From Patescibacteria group bacterium (GTDB taxonomy: Bacteria; Patescibacteriota; Patescibacteriia; XYB2-FULL-38-15): a DNA stretch of 64,000 bases. This document shows, piece by piece, positions 4,995 through 59,640 of the stretch. Below the pieces are notes generated by a model. It made no database searches, had not been told where the DNA came from, and worked only from the letters and a program-made list of their open reading frames with translations. Every line of letters begins with the position of its first letter. Position 1 is the stretch's first letter. The translations under genes were made by a program, and so were the position numbers. The DNA lies in the NCBI GenBank assembly GCA_041653675.1, contig JBAZEY010000006.1, positions 837 through 64,836 on the forward strand, in the 5' to 3' direction.

Positions 4995-5050
4995 TACTAA
5001 ATTTTCGCCTAAAAGAAAAACCCCGACAAAAAGTCAGGATTTTTCTTTGG
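4995..5050. terminator. hairpin plus T-run terminator between the DUF262-HNH gene and pgsA
   Basis: CCCCGACAAAAAGTCAGG hairpin with flanking A/T runs and a GC-rich stem just upstream. Confidence 0.35.
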
Positions 5051-5092
5051 CTCCACGCTCCGAGCAAACTGCCCCGCCGCCTAAAATTATTC

Positions 5093-6262
5093 TTACCGAT
5101 TTCCTTTCGCTCGATTGTGTGTCTTGCACAACATCTGACAGTTTTTGGCTGCTGTTTTGCCACCTTTGCTCCAAGCCGCGACATGGTCGGCATCCATCTC
5201 GTTCAAATTCCAAATCTTTTCCTTGTTGGCATCGTGTCCAACGGCACAAAGCGGGCAGTTTGATTTTTCTTTCTTTTCAGCCGCAGCGGTCTGTGTTGCA
5301 TACACAGTTTTCTTTGTCGCTTCATCAAAAATTCTGACTTCAAGTAATTTCGTATCAGTGGAATCACCAAGAATATACTCAAAAATTCCTCTACGATTTT
5401 TTACATACGGATCCGCATAAAGTTTATGAACTTCCGCCGACACTTTGGCAGGATTATACGCTTTCTTGTGATATGTTTCGTAAAGCCGTCCCCACGGAAG
5501 CCCGCACATTTCGCTTTCTACGTCAGTAAATACGCTAGATACCCAATCAATGACGGTGTTAAAATATTTTTTCAACTCATCAATATTTTTGTCTTTGCGA
5601 TGTTTGCTCATATAATCGCCAATATTGTCTTTGCTTACCCAATCAAGAGCACATTCCAAAAATTCCTGCCGGTTAGCGCTGCCGGATACATACGCGCTCC
5701 ATTTTTGGATATTGGCGTTTTGGCTATTGCTGAATTCCTCTTTACCGAGTGTCACAAATGGTCCGGAATAAACCGCATTGAGCAATTCCTGATTATTAAG
5801 CGGAACACCGGCAATATTTATTGTTTTAAACCATTCTTTTATCTCGCTTTCTTCACCTTTACATTCATAAATAGTTAGTGTTGTATTCAATATTTTAGAT
5901 TGCTTATTTTTTGCAAGACCTGAAAAATATTGCTCCATACCATTTTCGTCTTTGATGGCGAATTTGTCATTCACAAAACGTCCAACGCTAGTGATGCGCT
6001 GTTGCCCGTCCAAAACTTCCAGATTGTTTTCAGATACCTTATTAAAATAAATCAAACCAATCGGATACCCCTTGAGAATCGAATCAATAACAGCAACCTC
6101 TCTTTTTCCACCATCGGAGGCATAGATATAGTTACGCTGATATTCCGGCTGAATAGTGAGCTTGCCGGACAATCCGAATAGTCCCTTGCCTTCAAGTTCG
6201 TTATAGACAAACCCATCGCAAATATCTTTGACAGTAATGTTGATCTTTAAAGCTGTATTCAT
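5093..6262 (-). CDS. DUF262 (ParB/Srx-like, DGQQR motif) N-terminal domain fused to a canonical HNH endonuclease; GmrSD-like type IV restriction candidate
   Basis: N-terminal ...[12 protein letters not shown] is the DUF262 signature. The C-terminus CPLCAVGHD...[12 protein letters not shown]...[15 protein letters not shown] is a CxxC...DH...N...CxxH-N HNH motif. The start overlaps the Dam gene by 4 nt. Confidence 0.75.
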
Positions 6263-7110
6263 ATTGTTATTAAATCAAAATTTATATTTTTAAGTTTAGA
6301 ATCAAAAAACAAAATTTCTTTACCTTTTTTAACACAAAAAGCTGTATAAATTAAATTAAATTCAAAACTATTCTTTACAAATTTATATAAATTTTTGATT
6401 TTTGAAGTATTATCATATGAAACTATCCAGTGAATTGTTTTTATTTTTTTAATTTCTTGCGATACTTTTTCATGATCTTCACTACTGTAAGAATTTTTGT
6501 AAAGACTTGGGCCTTTTAAATAATATGGCGGGTCAAAATAAAAAATAGTTTGCTGATTTTTAGATTCATCTTTAATTTTTTCAATCAGCTCAATGGCGTC
6601 TAAATTGAATAATTGAATTTGCTTTTTAAATTTTGCTATTTCCCTTATTCTTTTAATTAACTCCTGTTTCTTAAAACGACAATCCATTTTATAATTTCCA
6701 TCTTGCTTAATTCCTCCTATCAACCCGCCATCAATAATTCCGGACATGTTAACTCTATTAAGGAAAAAAGTAGAAAAGCCGAGCTGGATTAAGGATGAAT
6801 ATTTTTTTGTTTTTTGAATTGCCTTTGCCTTTCTCCAAGTTTCAACATTTATTTCAACATCTTCAATCATCTTACACAATTTATTTGTATGGTTTAAAAC
6901 AGAATACCAGAAAGCATAAATAGAGCGATCGTAATCATTTATAGTAATACTATCTACTTTTCCTTCTAATAATAAATACAAAGCCACAGATGCGCCGCCA
7001 GCATATGGCTCTACATAATGACTATTAATATTATTATCAACACAAATTTGAGCAATAAATTTTGCCAGCTTATTTTTTCCGCCTGGATATCTTAACGGTG
7101 AGTAGAACAT
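6259..7110 (-). CDS. DNA N6-adenine methyltransferase, Dam/D12 class
   Basis: N-terminal RYPGGK SAM-binding motif ([11 protein letters not shown]) and catalytic DPPY (FYFDPPYY). Confidence 0.85.
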
Positions 7111-7112
7111 AT

Positions 7113-8393
7113 TTATTCTTTTTTAGTTTTAAAATAAGTTTCTAAAATATCTCCCGCAACATATGACATTTTCAACACGTCCTGTTTCGAAACACTTATA
7201 TTGCCGTGAGCATATTTTCCAAGCAGTGCCTCAAACTCAAACCTTTTGTTTAAAAAATCTGAAGTAATACTCAAATAGTTTACAACTTCTTTATCTTTGC
7301 ATTCTTTTTGAAATAATTTAATAAAACTCAAATAGGGATTCTCTTGATTTGCATTATCGGTATCTCCTTGACTTCTGTAATAAATTCTAGAAGCAACATC
7401 CAATATTAACCTCGTAGACATTCCTACAATTAACAAAATATTCTCATCATCCGTTCCTTTTTTATAAACTTTATCAACTGCCAAATACAAATCATTTACT
7501 GGACCCTGTTCTAATTGCAAAACTCTGCCAAAAAGAATATCTTTCTTCTTTGTTGCTGGAGTTTTTTGAGGTTTTATCAATTTTTCAGCTTGTTTTTTAC
7601 TAATTGATATTTCTTCAAAAACACTATTTTCTGGGTTCTTCAGTATTTCATCAATAGATTTATCTTTGTTAATTATTGTTTTTAGTTTTCCTCTGTTATT
7701 TCGAGTAGATATATCACCTTTTTGTAAAGCATCCTGTGTTGCCTCAAAAATTTTAATGAGCTGTCCATCTGAATATTTACTATAAAGTTTGCCTTCCTTC
7801 AGATCTATTCCGATATCTTTAAGATTTTTTTCATTTAAAACCTCTTCTTTCACAAATCTTTTGTTTAAAGTTTTGTTTCCTTTTAAAAAACCCGTTTGAT
7901 CATTAATGGACACAAAAATACTTTTTGGTTTATTTTTAAAATGTAACAAAAAGTAGTCTCTTTCGAGTTCTCCCCACGATCCATTATCAATATGTTTCCT
8001 TTCAATACTCGTAACAGCAGTATTTTCATCACAAACATTACACGGAAGAGTGGTTTGTTCTCTCAATAATTTTGGCTCAAGTTCTCTGAATAACTGCCCC
8101 ACATACTTGGAATACTTACTATCATCTTGTATTATTTTTAGCAAAGCAACTCTTCTGTTTCCATCATAAACTACATACTTATCATCTTTTTTGACGACTA
8201 TGGGTAACTCTGAATAATCGTAATATTCGCCCATTTTTTGTACTAACTTTTTTATATTCCATTTATTATCCGAGTCTTGGATAATACGATCAATGATTTC
8301 TTCATCGATTTTTTTAGCATCAATTGGATCTCTTGGGTTTTCCGTCCAGAGATGTAAATTTTTTATTGGGATGTTTAGAATTTCTTGTTTCAT
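7113..8393 (-). CDS. ParB-like nuclease-domain (ParB-N/sulfiredoxin fold) protein, function unknown
   Basis: N-terminal ...VYDGNRRVALLKI matches the ParB-N GxxR motif. The ~300-aa C-terminal region has no recognisable motif. It is tightly packed between two MTase genes. Confidence 0.6.
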   Translation of the reverse strand: MKQEILNIPIKNLHLWTENPRDPIDAKKIDEEIIDRIIQDSDNKWNIKKLVQKMGEYYDYSELPIVVKKDDKYVVYDGNRRVALLKIIQDDSKYSKYVGQLFRELEPKLLREQTTLPCNVCDENTAVTSIERKHIDNGSWGELERDYFLLHFKNKPKSIFVSINDQTGFLKGNKTLNKRFVKEEVLNEKNLKDIGIDLKEGKLYSKYSDGQLIKIFEATQDALQKGDISTRNNRGKLKTIINKDKSIDEILKNPENSVFEEISISKKQAEKLIKPQKTPATKKKDILFGRVLQLEQGPVNDLYLAVDKVYKKGTDDENILLIVGMSTRLILDVASRIYYRSQGDTDNANQENPYLSFIKLFQKECKDKEVVNYLSITSDFLNKRFEFEALLGKYAHGNISVSKQDVLKMSYVAGDILETYFKTKKE

Positions 8394-8403
8394 AATCTCA
8401 AAA

Positions 8404-9519
8404 TTATTTTTTCTTATGTCTTATAAGTATTCGGGTATAGAGTCTTTCGTTGTTTACATAACCCCTATCTAACTTACCTGTCCATTTAGGATTAACCAAT
8501 TTAGGTAATAAACCCTCTTTGATATTGTAATCACTTCCTAATATCTCAAACTGGTCCGGATTATATTTATCCAGAAAACTGCTCGGCACCCCCATTGCGC
8601 CACTATAATCGCTTGGGATGGAATCAGTAAACGGCACCTCTATAGCATTGTAATTGTCATATTTATCATATGTTTTTTTACCTTTAATTTCTTTGTGTTT
8701 GCTGTATTTCAAATTTTCTTCCATTGTCATAAGCGGCAATGGTTGGTGACGACGTCCGTGGTCAAGATTTGTCAACCAAACGGCAGGCACATTTTTCATA
8801 TTGACACCATCAATCACCTTATCGACATCACCATCATCCATCGTTACGAACCATAATCCGCCAGACCATCCTGTTTTTCCTGACCACATTTTATTGGCTT
8901 TAATCAACGGAAAAATTTCCTTGGATGTTACGTTATTTTTATTGCCAATAATCACAAACTTTTTATTATAATCAAAAAGTTGTTTAACATATACGAGAAA
9001 CAAACTGAACGGCGGATTTGTTACCACAATGTCGGATTGTTTAAGTAGATTTATACATTCATCACTGCGAAAATCGCCGTCGCCGTCTAGTGGCGCCCAT
9101 TCGTTTTGTTTGTTTGCTTTTAACTGCTTGGCAATATCCTTTAAGTTGAATTCGCCATCGCCATCTATGTCATGCACTTCGTTAATAATAAATTTGTTAG
9201 CGGTTACTTTCGGACGGCCTTTTGATTTCGTGAGAGTTTTGTCATCGCCATACAATGGTAGTTCCAAATTGGCAACGGGCGAGGGTTTGTAGCTCGTAGT
9301 GATAAGCCGTTTCAATCCAATCTTGTTAAAATTGAGCACGAAATAGCGAAAGAAATTACTCTCGAACGGATCGTCGCAGTTGCAATATACTACTTTGCCG
9401 CGAAAGACATCGGGATTAAAATCTAGATACGCCTGAATTTCTTTTTGAATATCGCCATACTGAGTATAAAACTCATCATTTTTCGCTCTTTTTGCGTTTG
9501 TAAGATTTTTGTTTGCCAT
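8404..9519 (-). CDS. adenine-specific DNA methyltransferase, EcoRI-methylase family
   Basis: N-terminal NDEFYTQYGDIQKEI...VYCNCDDPFESNF and catalytic NPPF (VVTNPPFSLF). It carries an insert with two DxDGDG loops. Confidence 0.75.
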   Translation of the reverse strand: MANKNLTNAKRAKNDEFYTQYGDIQKEIQAYLDFNPDVFRGKVVYCNCDDPFESNFFRYFVLNFNKIGLKRLITTSYKPSPVANLELPLYGDDKTLTKSKGRPKVTANKFIINEVHDIDGDGEFNLKDIAKQLKANKQNEWAPLDGDGDFRSDECINLLKQSDIVVTNPPFSLFLVYVKQLFDYNKKFVIIGNKNNVTSKEIFPLIKANKMWSGKTGWSGGLWFVTMDDGDVDKVIDGVNMKNVPAVWLTNLDHGRRHQPLPLMTMEENLKYSKHKEIKGKKTYDKYDNYNAIEVPFTDSIPSDYSGAMGVPSSFLDKYNPDQFEILGSDYNIKEGLLPKLVNPKWTGKLDRGYVNNERLYTRILIRHKKK

Positions 9520-9687
9520 ATTTTATTTCAATAAATCGTCGAGCGAAACGCCGAGCGCATTGACGATTTTGTGAGACGTTTGATTAAATGCATCTTCCCT
9601 TAATTTTCCCGCAAAAGAGACGAATTGTCAATTTACTCTACATTCCGTCTTTTTGAAACAAGGTCGCTATGTTATAATTGAAATGAT

Positions 9688-9959: not shown

Positions 9960-9982
9960 TGGCTCGGGAGGTGGGATTCGAA
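9960..9982 (-). repeat. direct repeat of the tRNA-Asn 3' end (23 nt, identical), att-like
   Basis: tggctcgggaggtgggattcgaa is identical to 10086-10108. It lies 103 bp from the intact tRNA in the same orientation. Confidence 0.8.
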
Positions 9983-10085
9983 GGCTCCTCGGTGCGGATT
10001 CTGCCGCAACGACCTGGCGGAGTGTGGGTTCTTTCCGAACCCCAAACAAAATAAAAAACCCAACGCAAGGTTGGGTTCTTTATTT

Positions 10086-10160
10086 TGGCTCGGGAGGTGG
10101 GATTCGAACCCACGACCAACGCGTTAACAGCGCGCTGCTCTACCACTGAGCTACCCCCGA
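10086..10160 (-). tRNA. tRNA-Asn (GTT)
   Basis: Reverse complement folds as a cloverleaf. The 7-bp acceptor stem has one G.U pair, the D-arm is GCTC/GAGC, the anticodon stem is GCGCG/CGCGT with loop CTGTTAA, the T-arm is GTGGG-TTCGAAT-CCCAC, and the 3' end is GCCA. Confidence 0.9.
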
Positions 10161-10202
10161 ATAATGTAATATTTACCAAAATTACTTTGGTTTTATACTT
10201 TA

Positions 10203-11435
10203 TCAATAATCCCTTAATTTTTCAATACCCTTGAACCCTTGCACTTTTTCCAAAGCTTTTGCTTCAATTTGCCGAATGCGTTCGCGGGTTACGCCAAATT
10301 CCTCGCCAACTTCTTCCAAAGTATGCGAAACGCCGTCGGAAAGGCCAAAACGCATTTCCAAAATTTTCTGTTCGCGAGGCAGGAGGTCCTTAATTGCTTC
10401 TTTAACATATTCCCGCAAAAGCTGCAATGCCGCCGCGCGATCCGGAGAAACGTTTTTGAAATCTTCTATAAAATCTTCGAGCACGCTATCTTCATCTTCA
10501 TCGCCGACCGAAGTATCAAGCGAAACCGTGTCTTGGGAAATCTGAATTAAATTTCTAATTTTTTCCACATCCTCGCCCATCTCCGAAGCAATCTCTTCGG
10601 GCAAGGGTTCGCGCCCCAAATCCTGAATCAATTGCCTCGCCACTTGCTGATAACGGTTAATAGTTTCCACCATATGCACCGGAATTCTGATAGTGCGAGA
10701 TTGATCCGCAAGGGCACGCGTCACGGCCTGACGAATCCACCAAGTTGCGTAAGTTGAAAATTTATATCCTTTACTCGGATCAAATTTTTCCACGGCGCGC
10801 ATCAAACCAATATTCCCCTCTTGAATCAAATCTGCCAAAGATAAATTTTTTCCCACGAATTTTTTTGCAATAGAAACAACAAGGCGCAAATTGGCAACCA
10901 TTAATCTCTGCGACGCTTCCTGGTCTCCCTGATCCTTGCGGCGGGCCAAAGCCATTTCTTCTTCAGTCGTTAAAAGCGGCACTTTTCCGATTTCACGAAG
11001 ATACATCTGAATGGAATCGGTAGAAATATCGCCCAAGTCCAATCGCTTCTTTTCTTTACTGACGCCAATATCGGCCAAAAGTTTTTTTCTCTCTTCAGTG
11101 CGCCCCAAAATATCAGATTTAACTTCCACCACAGAAATTCCGGCCTCATCAATTTTATCTAAAAATTCTTCGTATTTTTTTATGTAATTTTCCAAATCGG
11201 CGAAAGTGAAAAGGATTTCCGAATCAGTCAAAAAACCTCTCATGCGGCCCTTGTCCAAGAGAGTTTTTATCGTTTCATCGCTTGGCGGAAGAATTTTTGG
11301 TGCGACGACTCTGGCGACTTTTTTCGCCTTAATTTTCTTTCCACCTCGTTTGGCTATCTTTTTCTTCCCGCCCGATTTTTTAATTTTTTTCACGCCGCCC
11401 TTCTTCTTCGGCCGACGCACTTTTTTAGTTTTCAT
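10203..11435 (-). CDS. rpoD: RNA polymerase sigma-70 factor RpoD
   Basis: Regions 2-4 are present ([34 protein letters not shown] region 4.2). The N-terminal 40 aa are Lys-rich. Confidence 0.9.
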
Positions 11436-13331: not shown

Positions 13332-14396
13332 TTAATTTATTTCTATTTCTCTGCCACAATAAGGGCATTTAAATGGCGACCTATAATTATAACAAGTAGT
13401 TGCATACGTTACTCTTGATGAATAAAAACGATTAAGAGAATCCTTATTATATCCATATTCAGAAAGTTCTTTTTCTATATTTTTACCACAAAATGGACAA
13501 AATTTTCTTTCCGCTTCTATTACATTTGAAATACGGAACGTCCCGAAATCATTGTTTAATGAAGAAGAAAATGGCAAATTGATGCCCGATGAAACAGACG
13601 CTAAAGCGGGCGGCTCTATGCCACAATTAATTGTTCTATAAGTTCTATCAAATTTTTTCTTTTGTTCTTCTGTATAATTTTCCTTAAATTCCTTATCCAG
13701 CATATCAAGCGGGTTTTTGTACCCACTTATTTTTATATTTTCAACATTAGTCTTTTTTATAGATGTTTTTACTCCCTCATTTAATAATTTTTTTCCACAA
13801 TCTTCAAAATAATCTTTATCATCTACGCATAAAATACATTTTTGTTTCTTATCAATTTTGCTATCTTCCAAAAATTTTAAAAAAGATTCAAATGCAATAC
13901 AATCGAGGTCTTTCACATAAGCCGTTTTTCTGGGGTTCTCCGTCCATGGTGGTTCCTTTAACGAAGATCTCACCATGCCCCGAATTAAGATATCACCAGT
14001 TAATGGAATCTTTTTTGTATTTTTATGACTCATAATCCGCTTAATAATATCCTCGTTGGATCGCTCAATGTCTTCTACGGATTTTACGTTGTCTTTTATG
14101 CTTTTCGTAATTTTTTCATGTATTTTTTTGAACTGGTCTTTCTCCTTTGAAGACCCAAAAATTTTAGATGAATCTATGCAATTAATATTATCCTTTATTT
14201 CTTTAAATATTTTTTTATGTTCATCGAATATTTCTTTTTCAATTACTTCTGGAACAACAAGAACCATCTTACCGCTATCAACCTTATTTTCAATTTTTTT
14301 CAAAACATCTATATCTAAATCATCTATCTGTTCCAAGGCACAACTAATAAAAATATTTGTATCAATAAAGACTATTTGGGGTAGATTTCTTCTCAT
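13332..14396 (-). CDS. PIN-like domain protein with C-terminal zinc ribbon, function unknown
   Basis: N-terminus IVFIDTNIFISCAL resembles the first PIN acidic motif. The C-terminus has CPFCG...(x18)...CPYCG. Confidence 0.5.
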   Translation of the reverse strand: MRRNLPQIVFIDTNIFISCALEQIDDLDIDVLKKIENKVDSGKMVLVVPEVIEKEIFDEHKKIFKEIKDNINCIDSSKIFGSSKEKDQFKKIHEKITKSIKDNVKSVEDIERSNEDIIKRIMSHKNTKKIPLTGDILIRGMVRSSLKEPPWTENPRKTAYVKDLDCIAFESFLKFLEDSKIDKKQKCILCVDDKDYFEDCGKKLLNEGVKTSIKKTNVENIKISGYKNPLDMLDKEFKENYTEEQKKKFDRTYRTINCGIEPPALASVSSGINLPFSSSLNNDFGTFRISNVIEAERKFCPFCGKNIEKELSEYGYNKDSLNRFYSSRVTYATTCYNYRSPFKCPYCGREIEIN

Positions 14397-56547: not shown

Positions 56548-57627
56548 CTACGGGCAGTCCTCGTCGACCAGTCCGTCGCAGTTGTCGTCGAGGCCGTTGC
56601 CACACGTGTCGATGGAACCCGGAATGGACCAGATGGTTCCGGGTGGCGACGAATCGCAGGCCAGCTGGAACATCTCACCAGGCGCGTTGCAGGTGATGAC
56701 GCCGAACTCGGTGCAAAGACCTTCGTCGGAGAAGATGACGCAGGTACGACCGAGATCCTCTCGGTAGTCCTCGTCCGTTTCCCCATCGCAGTCGTTGTCG
56801 ATCTCGTCGCAGAGTTCCTGGGCGTCCGGATTGATAGCCGCGTCGCTATCGTCGCAGTCTTCCGCATTGGTAACGTACCCAGGAGGCATATCCTCGGTTG
56901 GACAGTGTGACGAGGTAGCGGTGGGGGTGTCGAATCCGAAGCCGTCGCCGTCTCGATCAAAGTAGATCGGAAAGCGATCGATGGCATCCGCGTCCGTCTC
57001 GCCGTCGCAGTCGTTGTCGAGGCCGTCGCAGATCTCGCCAACGCCGGGATGGACAGCCGGATTGTGATCGTCGCAGTCGTAGTACTCACCCGGCGAAGAA
57101 CCACAGAGCTGATGACCATCGACGTCATCATCACGTCCGACAAGCAAACAGTGATTCATCACACAACGGGAGATGATGCACTCACTGTCGCGAAAACCGC
57201 AGTCATCGGAAGTGACACACTCTGGCGGCGCGCAGGCGGGATCATCGGACGGAACGTGGCGACAGATGCCGCCAACCTCGCAGAGGTCGACCGTGCAGTC
57301 GTCGCCGTCGTCGCAGTCCGCACTCGTCTCACATTCGGTAGTCGGGAGACACACGCACATGTCGCCGGAACAAACGCCGGTTGACATGCCTTCTGCCTGG
57401 CACTCGAAAACGCAATCGGTCGGCACGCAGTCGGACGGCGGCTCGCAGGCCGGATTGTCGGAGGGAACCATGACGCAGGTGCGGTCAATGCCGCAGATGT
57501 CCACCGTGCAGGGGTCGCCGTCGGCGCAGTCCGCGTCCGAAACGCACTCCTGACTCAGATCGAGGAACGTGTTGTTGCAACCGATCGCGAACAGAACCAC
57601 GGACAGAACCATCAACGTATTCTTCAT
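56548..57627 (-). CDS. secreted Cys/Asp-rich lipoprotein with MopE/TSP3-like DxDxDGxxDC metal(Ca)-binding repeats
   Basis: Start reassigned to MKNTLMVLSVVLFAIGC (SD AAGGAAGGAAAG). It has repeats CDGLDNDCDGETD, CDEIDNDCDGETDED, CGNGLDDNCDGLVDEDC and ~14% Cys. The ORF-track N-terminus (MFRLLSRV...) is the upstream leader read in frame. Confidence 0.65.
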   Translation of the reverse strand: MKNTLMVLSVVLFAIGCNNTFLDLSQECVSDADCADGDPCTVDICGIDRTCVMVPSDNPACEPPSDCVPTDCVFECQAEGMSTGVCSGDMCVCLPTTECETSADCDDGDDCTVDLCEVGGICRHVPSDDPACAPPECVTSDDCGFRDSECIISRCVMNHCLLVGRDDDVDGHQLCGSSPGEYYDCDDHNPAVHPGVGEICDGLDNDCDGETDADAIDRFPIYFDRDGDGFGFDTPTATSSHCPTEDMPPGYVTNAEDCDDSDAAINPDAQELCDEIDNDCDGETDEDYREDLGRTCVIFSDEGLCTEFGVITCNAPGEMFQLACDSSPPGTIWSIPGSIDTCGNGLDDNCDGLVDEDCP

Positions 57628-57900
57628 CTTCTTCTCTCTTTCCTTCCTTGTTGTAAAGAACTTTGTCCCGGACACGCGAAACATCGCGGCCGAGAAACTT
57701 TCCTCTCTTCGAATTTGCCACGCAACGCGTGGTACCCTCGAAAGAAGGCGGAACACATTTTTTAGGTGGGTTCCGCTAAGCTCGTATTTTTTCTTGCTGT
57801 CACCTTGCGGTGATTTAGGAAAATTTACGAGCCACCGTCCGAAGGACTCGGACGATTTCCGGCATACTTTTGGAAGCCGGCTTGTTTTTGGAAGGAACTA
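57565..57900 (-). repeat. leader repeat copy 1 (~335 bp, identical to 59307..59640), comprising the first codons plus 5' UTR/promoter
   Basis: An exact duplicate covering the signal-peptide codons, SD and ~270 bp upstream with several hairpins (TCACC-GCAA-GGTGA, CCACGC-GTT-GCGTGG, TCCGA-GTCCT-TCGGA). Confidence 0.85.
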
Positions 57901-59370
57901 CTCGGCGATCACGAGCTTCGTGGAGGCGATCATGGGGAGACCCGACAGGAAACAGATCTCATGGCCGACGTCAATGTCGTCCGCGCTCATGATCCCGAAC
58001 TGGAAGATCTCTCCCAATTCGGGATGGTCGGCTCCGAACCCGCTCAGAGAAAGCTCGACGTACGAGATTTCGACTTCCGGCGGCACCGCGATGTTTTCGA
58101 AGACAATCTGATCGCCGGGACTCCCTTCTCCACTGGGTACGATCTTCTCCTTCCGGATCGAAACCCATTCGCCCGAGAACGGAACCCTCCCATGCAGTGT
58201 CAGCCACGCATCCAAGCTGGCATCACCCTGGAGAACCGTGAAGGCAATCCGAGGGATCACGCCTGTTTCAATCTGAACCATGAAGGCGAACTTCGCCACC
58301 GAAACCTCGTAAGTGCTGCTGTCCATCGGTGCGCACCAAGTGTCCTCGGCACACTCGCTCGGTACCACCTGTCCGTACGTAACCCAGTTGACCCACGGAA
58401 ACACGGGCGGACCACTGATGAAGAGCGAGCTGCAGAAATCCGCGGGGTAACGTGGTTCAGTGACGGTTGAAGAACAGGAATGGAAAGGATGGCTGGTGCA
58501 CGCGGGAGCTGGTGGGCAAACGGAATCTTCGTCCGTCTCGCCGTCGCAGTCGTCGTCCGCGCTGTTGCAGACCTCGGTAGTCGGGATGCAGGCAGGCCCA
58601 CAGTCCTCGTCGACCGCCGTGTCGCAATTGTCATCTCGACCGTTGCCGCAGACCTCGTCGGCGCCGGGATGAACATCCGGATCGTGATCGTCGCAATCGT
58701 AGCGTTCGCCTTCCGGCAGACCGCCGCAGAGCGACCGACCGTCGCCATCGTCATCACGTTCGAAAGCGAAGCACGAATTCGCCAAGCAGCGGAAGACGAG
58801 ACACTCGCCGTCGAAGCGAGCGCAATCGGCATCCGTGCGGCACTCGGGTGGTGTCTCACAGGCCGGATGACCGGCGCAACCAGAGTCGGCACAGTCGGCA
58901 CGACCGTCGCGATCGTTGTCTGCGCCATCCGTACACTCGCCGGGCTCGTCACCCTCGTAGTCGTCGACTTCCACATCCGCATCAGCGTCCGCATCGGCAT
59001 CGACGTCCGCGTCAGCATCCGAAGGCGTCTCGCAGGCCGGATGACCGGCGCAACCAGAGTCGGCGCAGTCGAACTGACCGTCACGGTCATTGTCCACGCC
59101 ATCCGTGCATTCTCCGGGCTCGTCGCCCTCGTAGTCGTCGGTACTTGCATCCGCGTCGGCGTCAGCATCGGCATCCCGGTCGTCCACCGGCTCGCAAGCC
59201 GGGTTGTCGGAGGGAACCATGACGCAGGTGCGGTCAATGCCGCAGATGTCCACCGTGCAGGGGTCGCCGTCGGCGCAATCCGTGTCCGACTGGCACTCGC
59301 TGTCGAGGAACGTGTTGTTGCAACCGATCGCGAACAGAACCACGGACAGAACCATCAACGTATTCTTCAT
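57898..59370 (-). CDS. secreted Cys/Asp-rich lipoprotein paralogue (~490 aa) with duplicated GECTDGxDNDRDGxxDCADSGCAGHPACETP modules and a C-terminal ~170-aa beta-rich domain
   Basis: Same signal, lipobox and first 25 residues as 56548..57627. It has poly-(DA) linkers, an internal exact module duplication and SD AAGGAAGGAAAG. Confidence 0.65.
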   Translation of the reverse strand: MKNTLMVLSVVLFAIGCNNTFLDSECQSDTDCADGDPCTVDICGIDRTCVMVPSDNPACEPVDDRDADADADADASTDDYEGDEPGECTDGVDNDRDGQFDCADSGCAGHPACETPSDADADVDADADADADVEVDDYEGDEPGECTDGADNDRDGRADCADSGCAGHPACETPPECRTDADCARFDGECLVFRCLANSCFAFERDDDGDGRSLCGGLPEGERYDCDDHDPDVHPGADEVCGNGRDDNCDTAVDEDCGPACIPTTEVCNSADDDCDGETDEDSVCPPAPACTSHPFHSCSSTVTEPRYPADFCSSLFISGPPVFPWVNWVTYGQVVPSECAEDTWCAPMDSSTYEVSVAKFAFMVQIETGVIPRIAFTVLQGDASLDAWLTLHGRVPFSGEWVSIRKEKIVPSGEGSPGDQIVFENIAVPPEVEISYVELSLSGFGADHPELGEIFQFGIMSADDIDVGHEICFLSGLPMIASTKLVIAE

Positions 59371-59640
59371 CTTCTTCTCTCTTTCCTTCCTTGTTGTAAA
59401 GAACTTTGTCCCGGACACGCGAAACATCGCGGCCGAGAAACTTTCCTCTCTTCGAATTTGCCACGCAACGCGTGGTACCCTCGAAAGAAGGCGGAACACA
59501 TTTTTTAGGTGGGTTCCGCTAAGCTCGTATTTTTTCTTGCTGTCACCTTGCGGTGATTTAGGAAAATTTACGAGCCACCGTCCGAAGGACTCGGACGATT
59601 TCCGGCATACTTTTGGAAGCCGGCTTGTTTTTGGAAGGGA
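59307..59640 (-). repeat. leader repeat copy 2
   Basis: Identical to 57565-57900. Confidence 0.85.

Follow-up and report, generated by a model that had tools for sequence, protein, structure and literature searches.

A DUF262-HNH protein as the probable restriction subunit of an EcoRI-methylase-type cassette that holds a nested PD-lambda-5-like module

A 64,000-nucleotide (nt) stretch of contig JBAZEY010000006.1 (positions 837 to 64,836, forward strand) from a Patescibacteria group bacterium (GenBank assembly GCA_041653675.1), hereafter the window, contains a minus-strand gene for a protein of 389 amino acids (aa), called R here, in which an N-terminal DUF262 domain is joined to a C-terminal HNH domain. 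R is best explained, with a probability of roughly 0.7, as the restriction subunit in a Type II-like restriction-modification (R-M) system of two genes, the cognate methylase being the EcoRI-family enzyme M (8404-9519), encoded 2.1 kb upstream on the same strand. The genes in question, and the parts of R to which the argument refers, are the following.

8404..9519, minus strand: M, a 371-aa EcoRI_methylase-family N6-adenine methyltransferase with an NPPF motif (Pfam PF13651, E = 2.7e-115; PADLOC MTase_II)
7113..8393, minus strand: A, a PD-lambda-5_A-like 426-aa protein with a DGNRR motif (PADLOC; AlphaFold2; Foldseek)
6259..7110, minus strand: B, a PD-lambda-5_B-like 283-aa Dam/D12-class adenine methyltransferase with a DPPY motif (Pfam PF02086, E = 8.8e-19; PADLOC)
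5093..6262, minus strand: R, a 389-aa DUF262-HNH nuclease (intact ATG-to-stop open reading frame; Pfam PF03235 and PF01844; PADLOC; AlphaFold2)
5768..6157, minus strand: DUF262/GmrSD_N domain of R, ParB/sulfiredoxin (Srx)-fold and NTPase-like, residues 36-165 (Pfam; invariant residues; weak Foldseek matches)
5996-6010, minus strand: DGQQR motif (D85-G86-Q87-Q88-R89) within the DUF262 domain of R
5258..5767, minus strand: all-helical middle of R, residues 166-335, without family assignment (secondary structure of the model)
5096..5257, minus strand: zinc-ribbon HNH of R, residues 336-389, CxxC ... DH ... N ... CxxH-N (Pfam HNH; conserved columns; Foldseek 4h9d and 6ghc)

The four genes form one operon in the order M-A-B-R; M and A are 10 nt apart, A and B 2 nt, and B and R overlap by 4 nt (ATGA). 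No terminator-like site was found on the minus strand between the M and R genes. A preliminary description of this DNA had R co-transcribed with two adenine methylase genes, and both are indeed present upstream on the same strand, with gaps or overlaps of 2-10 nt.

In the mechanism that we propose, M would mark host adenines at a short palindrome, probably GAATTC or another site with an AATT core, and R would cut DNA that lacks the mark through the active site of its C-terminal zinc-ribbon HNH (D359-H360, N374, N383). The DUF262 domain (Q42-R43 and DGQQR) would most likely bind or hydrolyze a nucleotide and, like its counterparts in BrxU, GmrSD, and SspE, license cutting in the role of a switch or DNA-engagement module, and the helical middle would supply the sequence or methylation read-out. 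Some relatives add a third, controller gene to the two-gene system. A and B, which lie between M and R in the same operon, together make up a complete PD-lambda-5-like module, that is, a ParB-fold/HEPN-like effector with its own Dam-type methylase.

Domain architecture and predicted structure of R

That R begins with a DUF262 domain bearing DGQQR and ends in a Cys-flanked HNH had been proposed in the preliminary description, and both assignments held up in Pfam. GmrSD_N/DUF262 (PF03235) matches residues 36-165 (E = 3.7e-21, 76.6 bits, cut-off 33.2), with the motif at D85-R89, and HNH (PF01844) matches residues 354-389 (E = 1e-5, 26.0 bits, gathering cut-off 21.4), with the quoted signature in place as C336-x2-C339, D359-H360, N374, and C379-K-T-H382-N383. 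The profile scan found no DUF1524 (GmrSD_C, PF07510; EHxxP-type motif) in R at E ≤ 0.1, so the suggestion that an HNH occupies the place of DUF1524 is confirmed as well. The further claim that this is a variant architecture did not survive: DUF262 was already remarked in 2013 to be often fused to HNH, PD-(D/E)xK, or HEPN domains (PMC3632139), and 441 clusters of the R family are found at E ≤ 1e-30 in a library clustered at 50% identity. The DUF262-HNH architecture is thus catalogued and very common, and the finding as first stated is an ordinary one.

The 77-sequence alignment used to assess conservation contains R, four of its close homologues, and 72 diverse sequences, each standing for a cluster at 50% identity. 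Q42, R43, D85, G86, R89, C336, and H360 are invariant, Q87, Q88, C339, D359, N374, and C379 are at least 90% conserved, and H382 and N383 of the HNH are also among the conserved positions. The helical middle, whose putative role is in DNA recognition or dimerization, is conserved over its full extent, as is the rest of the protein.

The AlphaFold2 model of R (predicted local distance difference test, pLDDT, 93.2; predicted template modeling score, pTM, 0.80) consists of a mixed α/β head, a long helical middle (166-335), and a small ββα tail, in which residues 356-386 form two strands and a helix of the HNH (ββα-Me) type. Against PDB, Foldseek gave weak matches of the N-terminus to BrxU (7p9k, the best, E = 9e-3) and to ParB CTPase domains, and of the C-terminus to Gme HNH and McrA; these were matches at the level of domains, and no full-length structural relative of R was found. 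Sequence searches of PDB with R and with M gave no match. In overall plan R resembles GmrSD, BrxU, and SspE, which combine DUF262 with DUF1524, since in it too a helical linker joins a DGQQR-bearing DUF262 at the N-terminus to a His-Me finger nuclease at the C-terminus. It differs from them in that its C-terminus is a compact Cys4-type zinc-ribbon HNH (PF01844) rather than DUF1524, in its length (389 aa vs ~580 for BrxU), and in its near-obligate link to a methylase gene, a link that GmrSD and BrxU lack.

The full-length profile that fits R best is of another kind. In PADLOC-DB, REase_II (PDLC03418, Type II restriction enzyme) aligns residues 8-388 of R with model positions 7-371/372 (E = 1.9e-83, 278.7 bits) and outscores every other PADLOC model by more than 50 orders of magnitude, the weaker matches being to the DUF262 defense proteins NsnA, PD-T4-2_A, and HEC-05/06. 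R and REase_II therefore correspond end to end, and a methylase gene adjoins the R gene in its homologues.

Pairing of R homologues with an EcoRI-family methylase

R has more than 8000 homologues, the best 120 of which are 84-100% identical to it and almost all 389 aa long. Beyond the first contexts examined, a scan of one genome per species gave 80 more loci from many phyla; L001-L097 are the first 97 loci retrieved with R. A gene of the EcoRI_methylase family lies directly upstream of the R homologue and on the same strand in 85 loci, usually with a spacing between a 4-nt overlap and a 9-nt gap, often translationally coupled; every one of L001-L097 with enough upstream DNA carries it. The pair occurs in Patescibacteria, Bacteroidota, Chloroflexota, Bacillota, Pseudomonadota, Actinomycetota, Spirochaetota, and a Pacearchaeota metagenome-assembled genome (MAG). 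It is also carried by small plasmids of Pediococcus, Moraxella (Moraxella osloensis), and Lactiplantibacillus, by large Enterococcus faecium plasmids, and by the Flavobacterium phage laban6-1. A Kazan-group genome, an actinobacterial MAG, and other contigs likewise have the R gene immediately 3′ of an EcoRI_methylase-family gene.

In some loci the methylase gene is itself preceded by a gene for a helix-turn-helix protein of 63-68 aa. The 68-aa protein of L004 has the controllers C.BclI (E = 2.6e-7), C.AhdI, and C.Esp1396I among its best PDB matches, and a C-protein-like gene is present in L004/L007 and in L098. The presence of a controller gene upstream implies that, until M has done its work, R is a hazard. 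Adjacency, coupling, and the controller genes found in some loci together give the layout of an R-M cassette and not that of a solitary modification-dependent enzyme.

This layout bears on the class to which R had been assigned in the preliminary description, namely the GmrSD-family type IV enzymes. R would then act on DNA containing hydroxymethylcytosine (hmC), glucosylated hmC (glc-hmC), or 5-methylcytosine (m5C), and the methylases would be unrelated neighbors in a defense island. Membership of the N-terminus in the GmrSD_N family speaks for this assignment, as do the top rank of BrxU among the structural matches (weak as it is), the lesser PADLOC matches to DUF262 defense proteins, and the label 'McrA' that some sources give to R homologues. 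However, Type IV enzymes do not show the almost invariable, translationally coupled link to a single methylase family that R homologues have in many phyla; neither upstream controller-protein genes nor the lack of DUF1524 fits such an enzyme, and the best full-length model is REase_II. With that match, the methylase adjacency in 85 loci, and the controller genes in view, the type IV assignment is probably wrong, and we consider it very unlikely that R acts in this way.

The names under which homologues are now found ('DUF262 protein', 'HNH endonuclease', 'McrA') are misleading in this respect and probably hide the pairing of the family with an EcoRI-type methylase.

A different partner for R can be imagined in the window itself, where the ATGA overlap of the B and R genes suggests translational coupling and the Dam-type methylase B (6259-7110) could take the place of M. 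None of the 97 loci L001-L097 has a Dam-type homologue or any other PD-lambda-5-like gene, and B matches PD-Lambda-5_B (E = 3.3e-114) and travels with A into Type III and Type IIG contexts that contain no DUF262-HNH gene. As a partner of R the Dam-type methylase was rejected on these grounds, and the chance that it nevertheless has that role is very slight indeed.

Relation of M to M.EcoRI and the possible target site

A small E. coli plasmid (L184, NZ_OW967970.1) carries a genuine M.EcoRI gene beside one annotated as 'type-2 restriction enzyme EcoRI', and this M.EcoRI provides a reference for the methylases that accompany R homologues. M of the window is a full-length homologue of true M.EcoRI at 40% identity, and M.EcoRI is up to 57.8% identical to another of the partner methylases. 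It retains 62 of the 68 columns that are at least 95% conserved among them, and it nests among them in a neighbor-joining tree. This nesting suggests that a single methylase lineage has, through swaps, come to be paired with restriction enzymes that are not homologous to one another. R.EcoRI is a PD-(D/E)XK enzyme, and neither the sequence search of PDB nor Foldseek brought it up as a homologue of R. The gene order differs too, being R-M in the EcoRI system and M-R here.

Descent within the M.EcoRI clade points to GAATTC, or a related site with an AATT core, as the probable target of the partner methylases. If so, the DUF262-HNH protein would fill the functional place of R.EcoRI.

Divergence of R and M, and the case against a Type II-like role

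Several observations weigh against R being the restriction subunit of a Type II-like system. An NTPase-like domain such as DUF262 is unexpected in a classical Type II enzyme and sets R apart from typical members of that class. The REase_II label may rest solely on a prediction from context in REBASE, the text of the PADLOC paper being silent on how its R-M models were constructed. The literature search yielded no biochemical data for the DUF262-HNH family; it likewise returned no paper characterizing a DUF262-HNH/EcoRI-type methylase pair and no solved structure for the family. Controller genes are found in a minority of loci only, and most loci have none.

Palindrome depletion does not single out the expected site either. 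The window has 15 GAATTC sites, and its most depleted 4-base palindrome is TCGA (observed/expected 0.55, z = -8.7). Pooled over 76 carrier loci (1.28 Mb), depletion is led by GATC, GGCC, CTAG, and CATG, with AATT in fifteenth place of the sixteen 4-mers and GAATTC 14th among hexamers (0.79). GAATTC and AATT thus stand out neither in the window nor in the carrier loci, in a comparison made without a non-carrier control and for that reason uninformative on the site.

The relative conservation of the two proteins is a further point on this side. Among 75 non-redundant loci, drawn from L001-L097 and the window, R is the more similar of the two proteins in 95% of locus pairs (mean identities 67% for R vs 54% for M), an effect that is partly ascertainment because the loci were picked by R similarity. 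The two identities barely co-vary (Spearman's rho 0.10), and in one pair of loci R is 93% identical and M 52%. In R, 131 of the 389 columns are at least 95% conserved and are spread along the full length of the protein, and the partner methylases consist of a conserved core with three variable loops, their putative specificity regions retaining conserved residues. In Type II systems the usual pattern is the reverse, and the greater conservation of R than of M may indicate that the exact site of the methylase is not what R reads. The pattern also fits frequent reshuffling of M and R genes that share one specificity.

It leaves room, moreover, for a mechanism like that of SspE, in which the DUF262 domain would sense a host mark and not a site. 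R would then take host N6-methyladenine as a licence and nick or cut unmarked invader DNA, and R without M would be inert. There is a precedent in that SspE, a DUF262-DUF1524 protein, is described in two reports as dependent on host phosphorothioate marks for its activity (PMC9646914, PMC12065111). The high conservation of R relative to M, with little co-divergence, suits a sensor of a generic mark better than an enzyme strictly matched to a site, and the lack of a controller gene in most loci also speaks for it. However, some lineages have controller genes, which would serve no purpose unless R posed a danger prior to methylation, the PADLOC model groups the family with Type II nucleases, and the conserved residues in the putative specificity regions of the partner methylases are consistent with one shared site. 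On balance an SspE-like mode of action appears unlikely, and restriction of unmethylated DNA by R as the Type II-like partner of M is the explanation that we retain. The family would then couple a ParB-like nucleotide switch with methylation-sensitive restriction, a combination that can be tested directly.

The PD-lambda-5-like module between M and R

PADLOC divides the operon into two systems, with M and R in one and A and B in the other. A is matched by 23 PADLOC families, 22 of which are PD-Lambda-5_A models; the match is moderate (best E = 5.5e-15) and strongest at the N-terminus, and no Pfam domain was found in A. The module occupies 6259-8393 and has A before B, as does PD-lambda-5; here the two genes are 2 nt apart. 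PD-lambda-5 was found experimentally in E. coli as a defense system and is viewed by its authors as a compacted R-M plus abortive infection (Abi) system (PMC9519451); its cloning required an mrr-deleted host (PMC9519451; Vassallo et al. 2022). A difference is that PD-lambda-5 stands alone in a prophage, whereas the A-B pair of the window is nested in another R-M operon.

In the AlphaFold2 model of A (pLDDT 84.3) the head adopts a ParB/sulfiredoxin fold (Foldseek probability 0.98-0.99) and the helical tail is weakly similar to HEPN toxins. A profile-profile comparison of the A family with the R family aligned the DGNRR/DGQQR segment alone (probability 2%), so that homology of the two N-termini is not shown by sequence, and both models match ParB-fold structures. 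As judged from the models, then, the operon appears to encode two effectors with ParB-fold heads, which differ in their tails (HEPN-like in one, HNH in the other) and have an adenine methylase apiece. Since PADLOC assigns the methylases to different systems, they are not a pair guarding one nuclease: M is the probable partner of R, and B belongs to the nested module. The operon is thus an instance of nesting of defense modules, which bears on how defense systems are counted and how their regulation is understood.

The same arrangement occurs elsewhere. L106 has the identical M-A-B-R order, with ~82% DNA identity to the window over A, B, and R; L098 has M-A-B-R together with a controller gene and a RhuM gene, and L100 has it with genes for MerR and DUF4325 proteins. 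A-B-like pairs were noted in the window, L098, L100-L103, and L104-L183.

Homologues of A, fetched with their flanks from metagenomes, have a Dam-type methylase gene as the next gene in nearly all cases, with a ~520-aa AAA_15/AAA_21 ATPase in between in some loci. Where the gene upstream of A is not EcoRI-like, domains of DNA methylases or R-M systems were found in 16 of the 25 genes scanned (Type III Mod, N6_N4_Mtase, Eco57I/MmeI-type, Type ISP, and D12), and in several loci genes for Type III Res or other endonucleases lie downstream. PD-lambda-5-like pairs tend to occupy the spot directly after methylase genes of other R-M types, namely Type III, Type IIG/MmeI-like, and Type ISP.

Other genes at the M-R junction

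The normally tight junction between M and R holds varied cargo in about one-tenth of the loci, that is, in L017, L021, L022, L030, L042, L064, L082, L088, L100, and L163. The cargo identified is as follows.

L017: OLD-like ATPase-TOPRIM protein and Bro-N proteins
L021: SLFN_AlbA_2/HATPase_c_4 protein and Bro-N protein
L022: RhuM-like protein, called by sequence alone
L030: Bro-N protein
L042: DUF2806 protein
L064: Fic protein directly upstream of R, on a contig that ends before any methylase gene could show
L100: MerR and DUF4325 proteins
L163: T5orf172 protein

RhuM itself was confirmed by Pfam in L110 and L104. Type I R-M loci are known to embed extra genes, such as PrrC in EcoPrrI, RloC, RhuM, Fic, and similar. 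The loci described here resemble them in having defense or DNA-binding cargo between modification and restriction genes, and the cargo families are common to both, with RhuM, Fic, Bro-N, and SLFN_AlbA_2/HATPase_c_4 proteins seen here. They differ in the host system, here a Type II-like cassette of two genes, M and R, that are as a rule translationally coupled.

A wider proposal would combine these observations: the M-R junction would be a recurrent slot for defense genes, PD-lambda-5-like modules would be placed after R-M methylases, this placement would be functional and guard-like, and R would be an NTP-gated, methylation-sensitive nuclease. By analogy with PrrC and EcoPrrI, the nested module might be a back-up that is co-expressed with the host R-M system and fired when that system is inhibited. 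Taken as a whole this proposal is tentative, and we find it more doubtful than convincing. If true, an NTP-gated methylation-sensitive nuclease would be a mechanism that has not been described for Type II-like systems.

Signals, mobility, and boundaries of the island

The operon is flanked by the following features.

5007..5051, minus strand: hairpin terminator just past the R stop codon, a stem followed by a U-run (-37 kcal/mol, z = -4.7, from folding of 5005-5095, minus strand)
9526..9579, minus strand: possible 3′-end remnant of a C-protein (controller) gene (tblastn; weak)
9603..9631, minus strand: promoter-like site TTGACA-17-GAAAAT upstream of M (consensus scan, 10/12 matches; pattern match only)
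10086-10160, minus strand: tRNA-Asn, just upstream of the operon and adjoining the island

The hairpin marks the end of the operon. The remnant corresponds to residues 51-68 of the L004 C-protein (18 residues, 67% identity, E = 0.024) and ends 7 nt before the M start codon, the place taken by the intact C genes of L004 and L098; it could represent a controller gene that has been truncated. G+C content falls to 0.295 at 6-8 kb, compared with ~0.40 in the flanks.

The last 22 nt of the tRNA-Asn gene are copied exactly 126 nt away (9961-9982 and 10087-10108), inside a 63-nt repeat with a hairpin. This duplication of the tRNA 3′ end looks like an att-site remnant beside the island, though a search for direct repeats flanking the island as att sites gave the tRNA-proximal pair only, with no copy at the far end.

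The location beside tRNA-Asn, whose 3′ end is duplicated, the recombinase or integrase genes near the cassettes of L001, L011, and L012, and the extreme spread of the cassette, at 61-92% protein identity across phyla, plasmids, and phage, would also be expected if the M-R cassette were mainly a selfish, addiction-type element in which the HNH serves post-segregational killing or the spread of the cassette more than phage defense. Such an account concerns selective benefit and does not exclude an R-M mechanism, and neither inverted repeats nor a homing-site signature was found at the ends of the cassette. We regard a mainly selfish cassette as improbable.

Additional observations

In L040, the complete Candidatus Peribacteria genome CP060226.1, M lies at 5883-6962 and R at 10001-11161, and the two genes are broken solely by TGA codons, three in M and four in R. 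One of these codons appears, judged by position alone, to coincide with the conserved Gly167. The host probably reads TGA as sense, and the cassette would then be adapted to that code.

Two other regions of the window were noted. At 13332-14396 on the minus strand lies a gene for a 354-aa protein whose N-terminus holds a PIN_12 domain (E = 4.8e-9) and whose C-terminus has two CxxC pairs resembling a zinc ribbon; PADLOC gave no match to this protein, which may be the product of another defense or toxin gene. At 56548-59499, also on the minus strand, the G+C content rises up to 0.56-0.60 against a genome value of ~0.40, and rRNA is absent from the region. It encodes two paralogous Cys/Asp-rich proteins of 402 and 533 aa, each with a hydrophobic N-terminal segment and with the first ~65 residues identical between them, and may represent foreign DNA or an assembly chimera.

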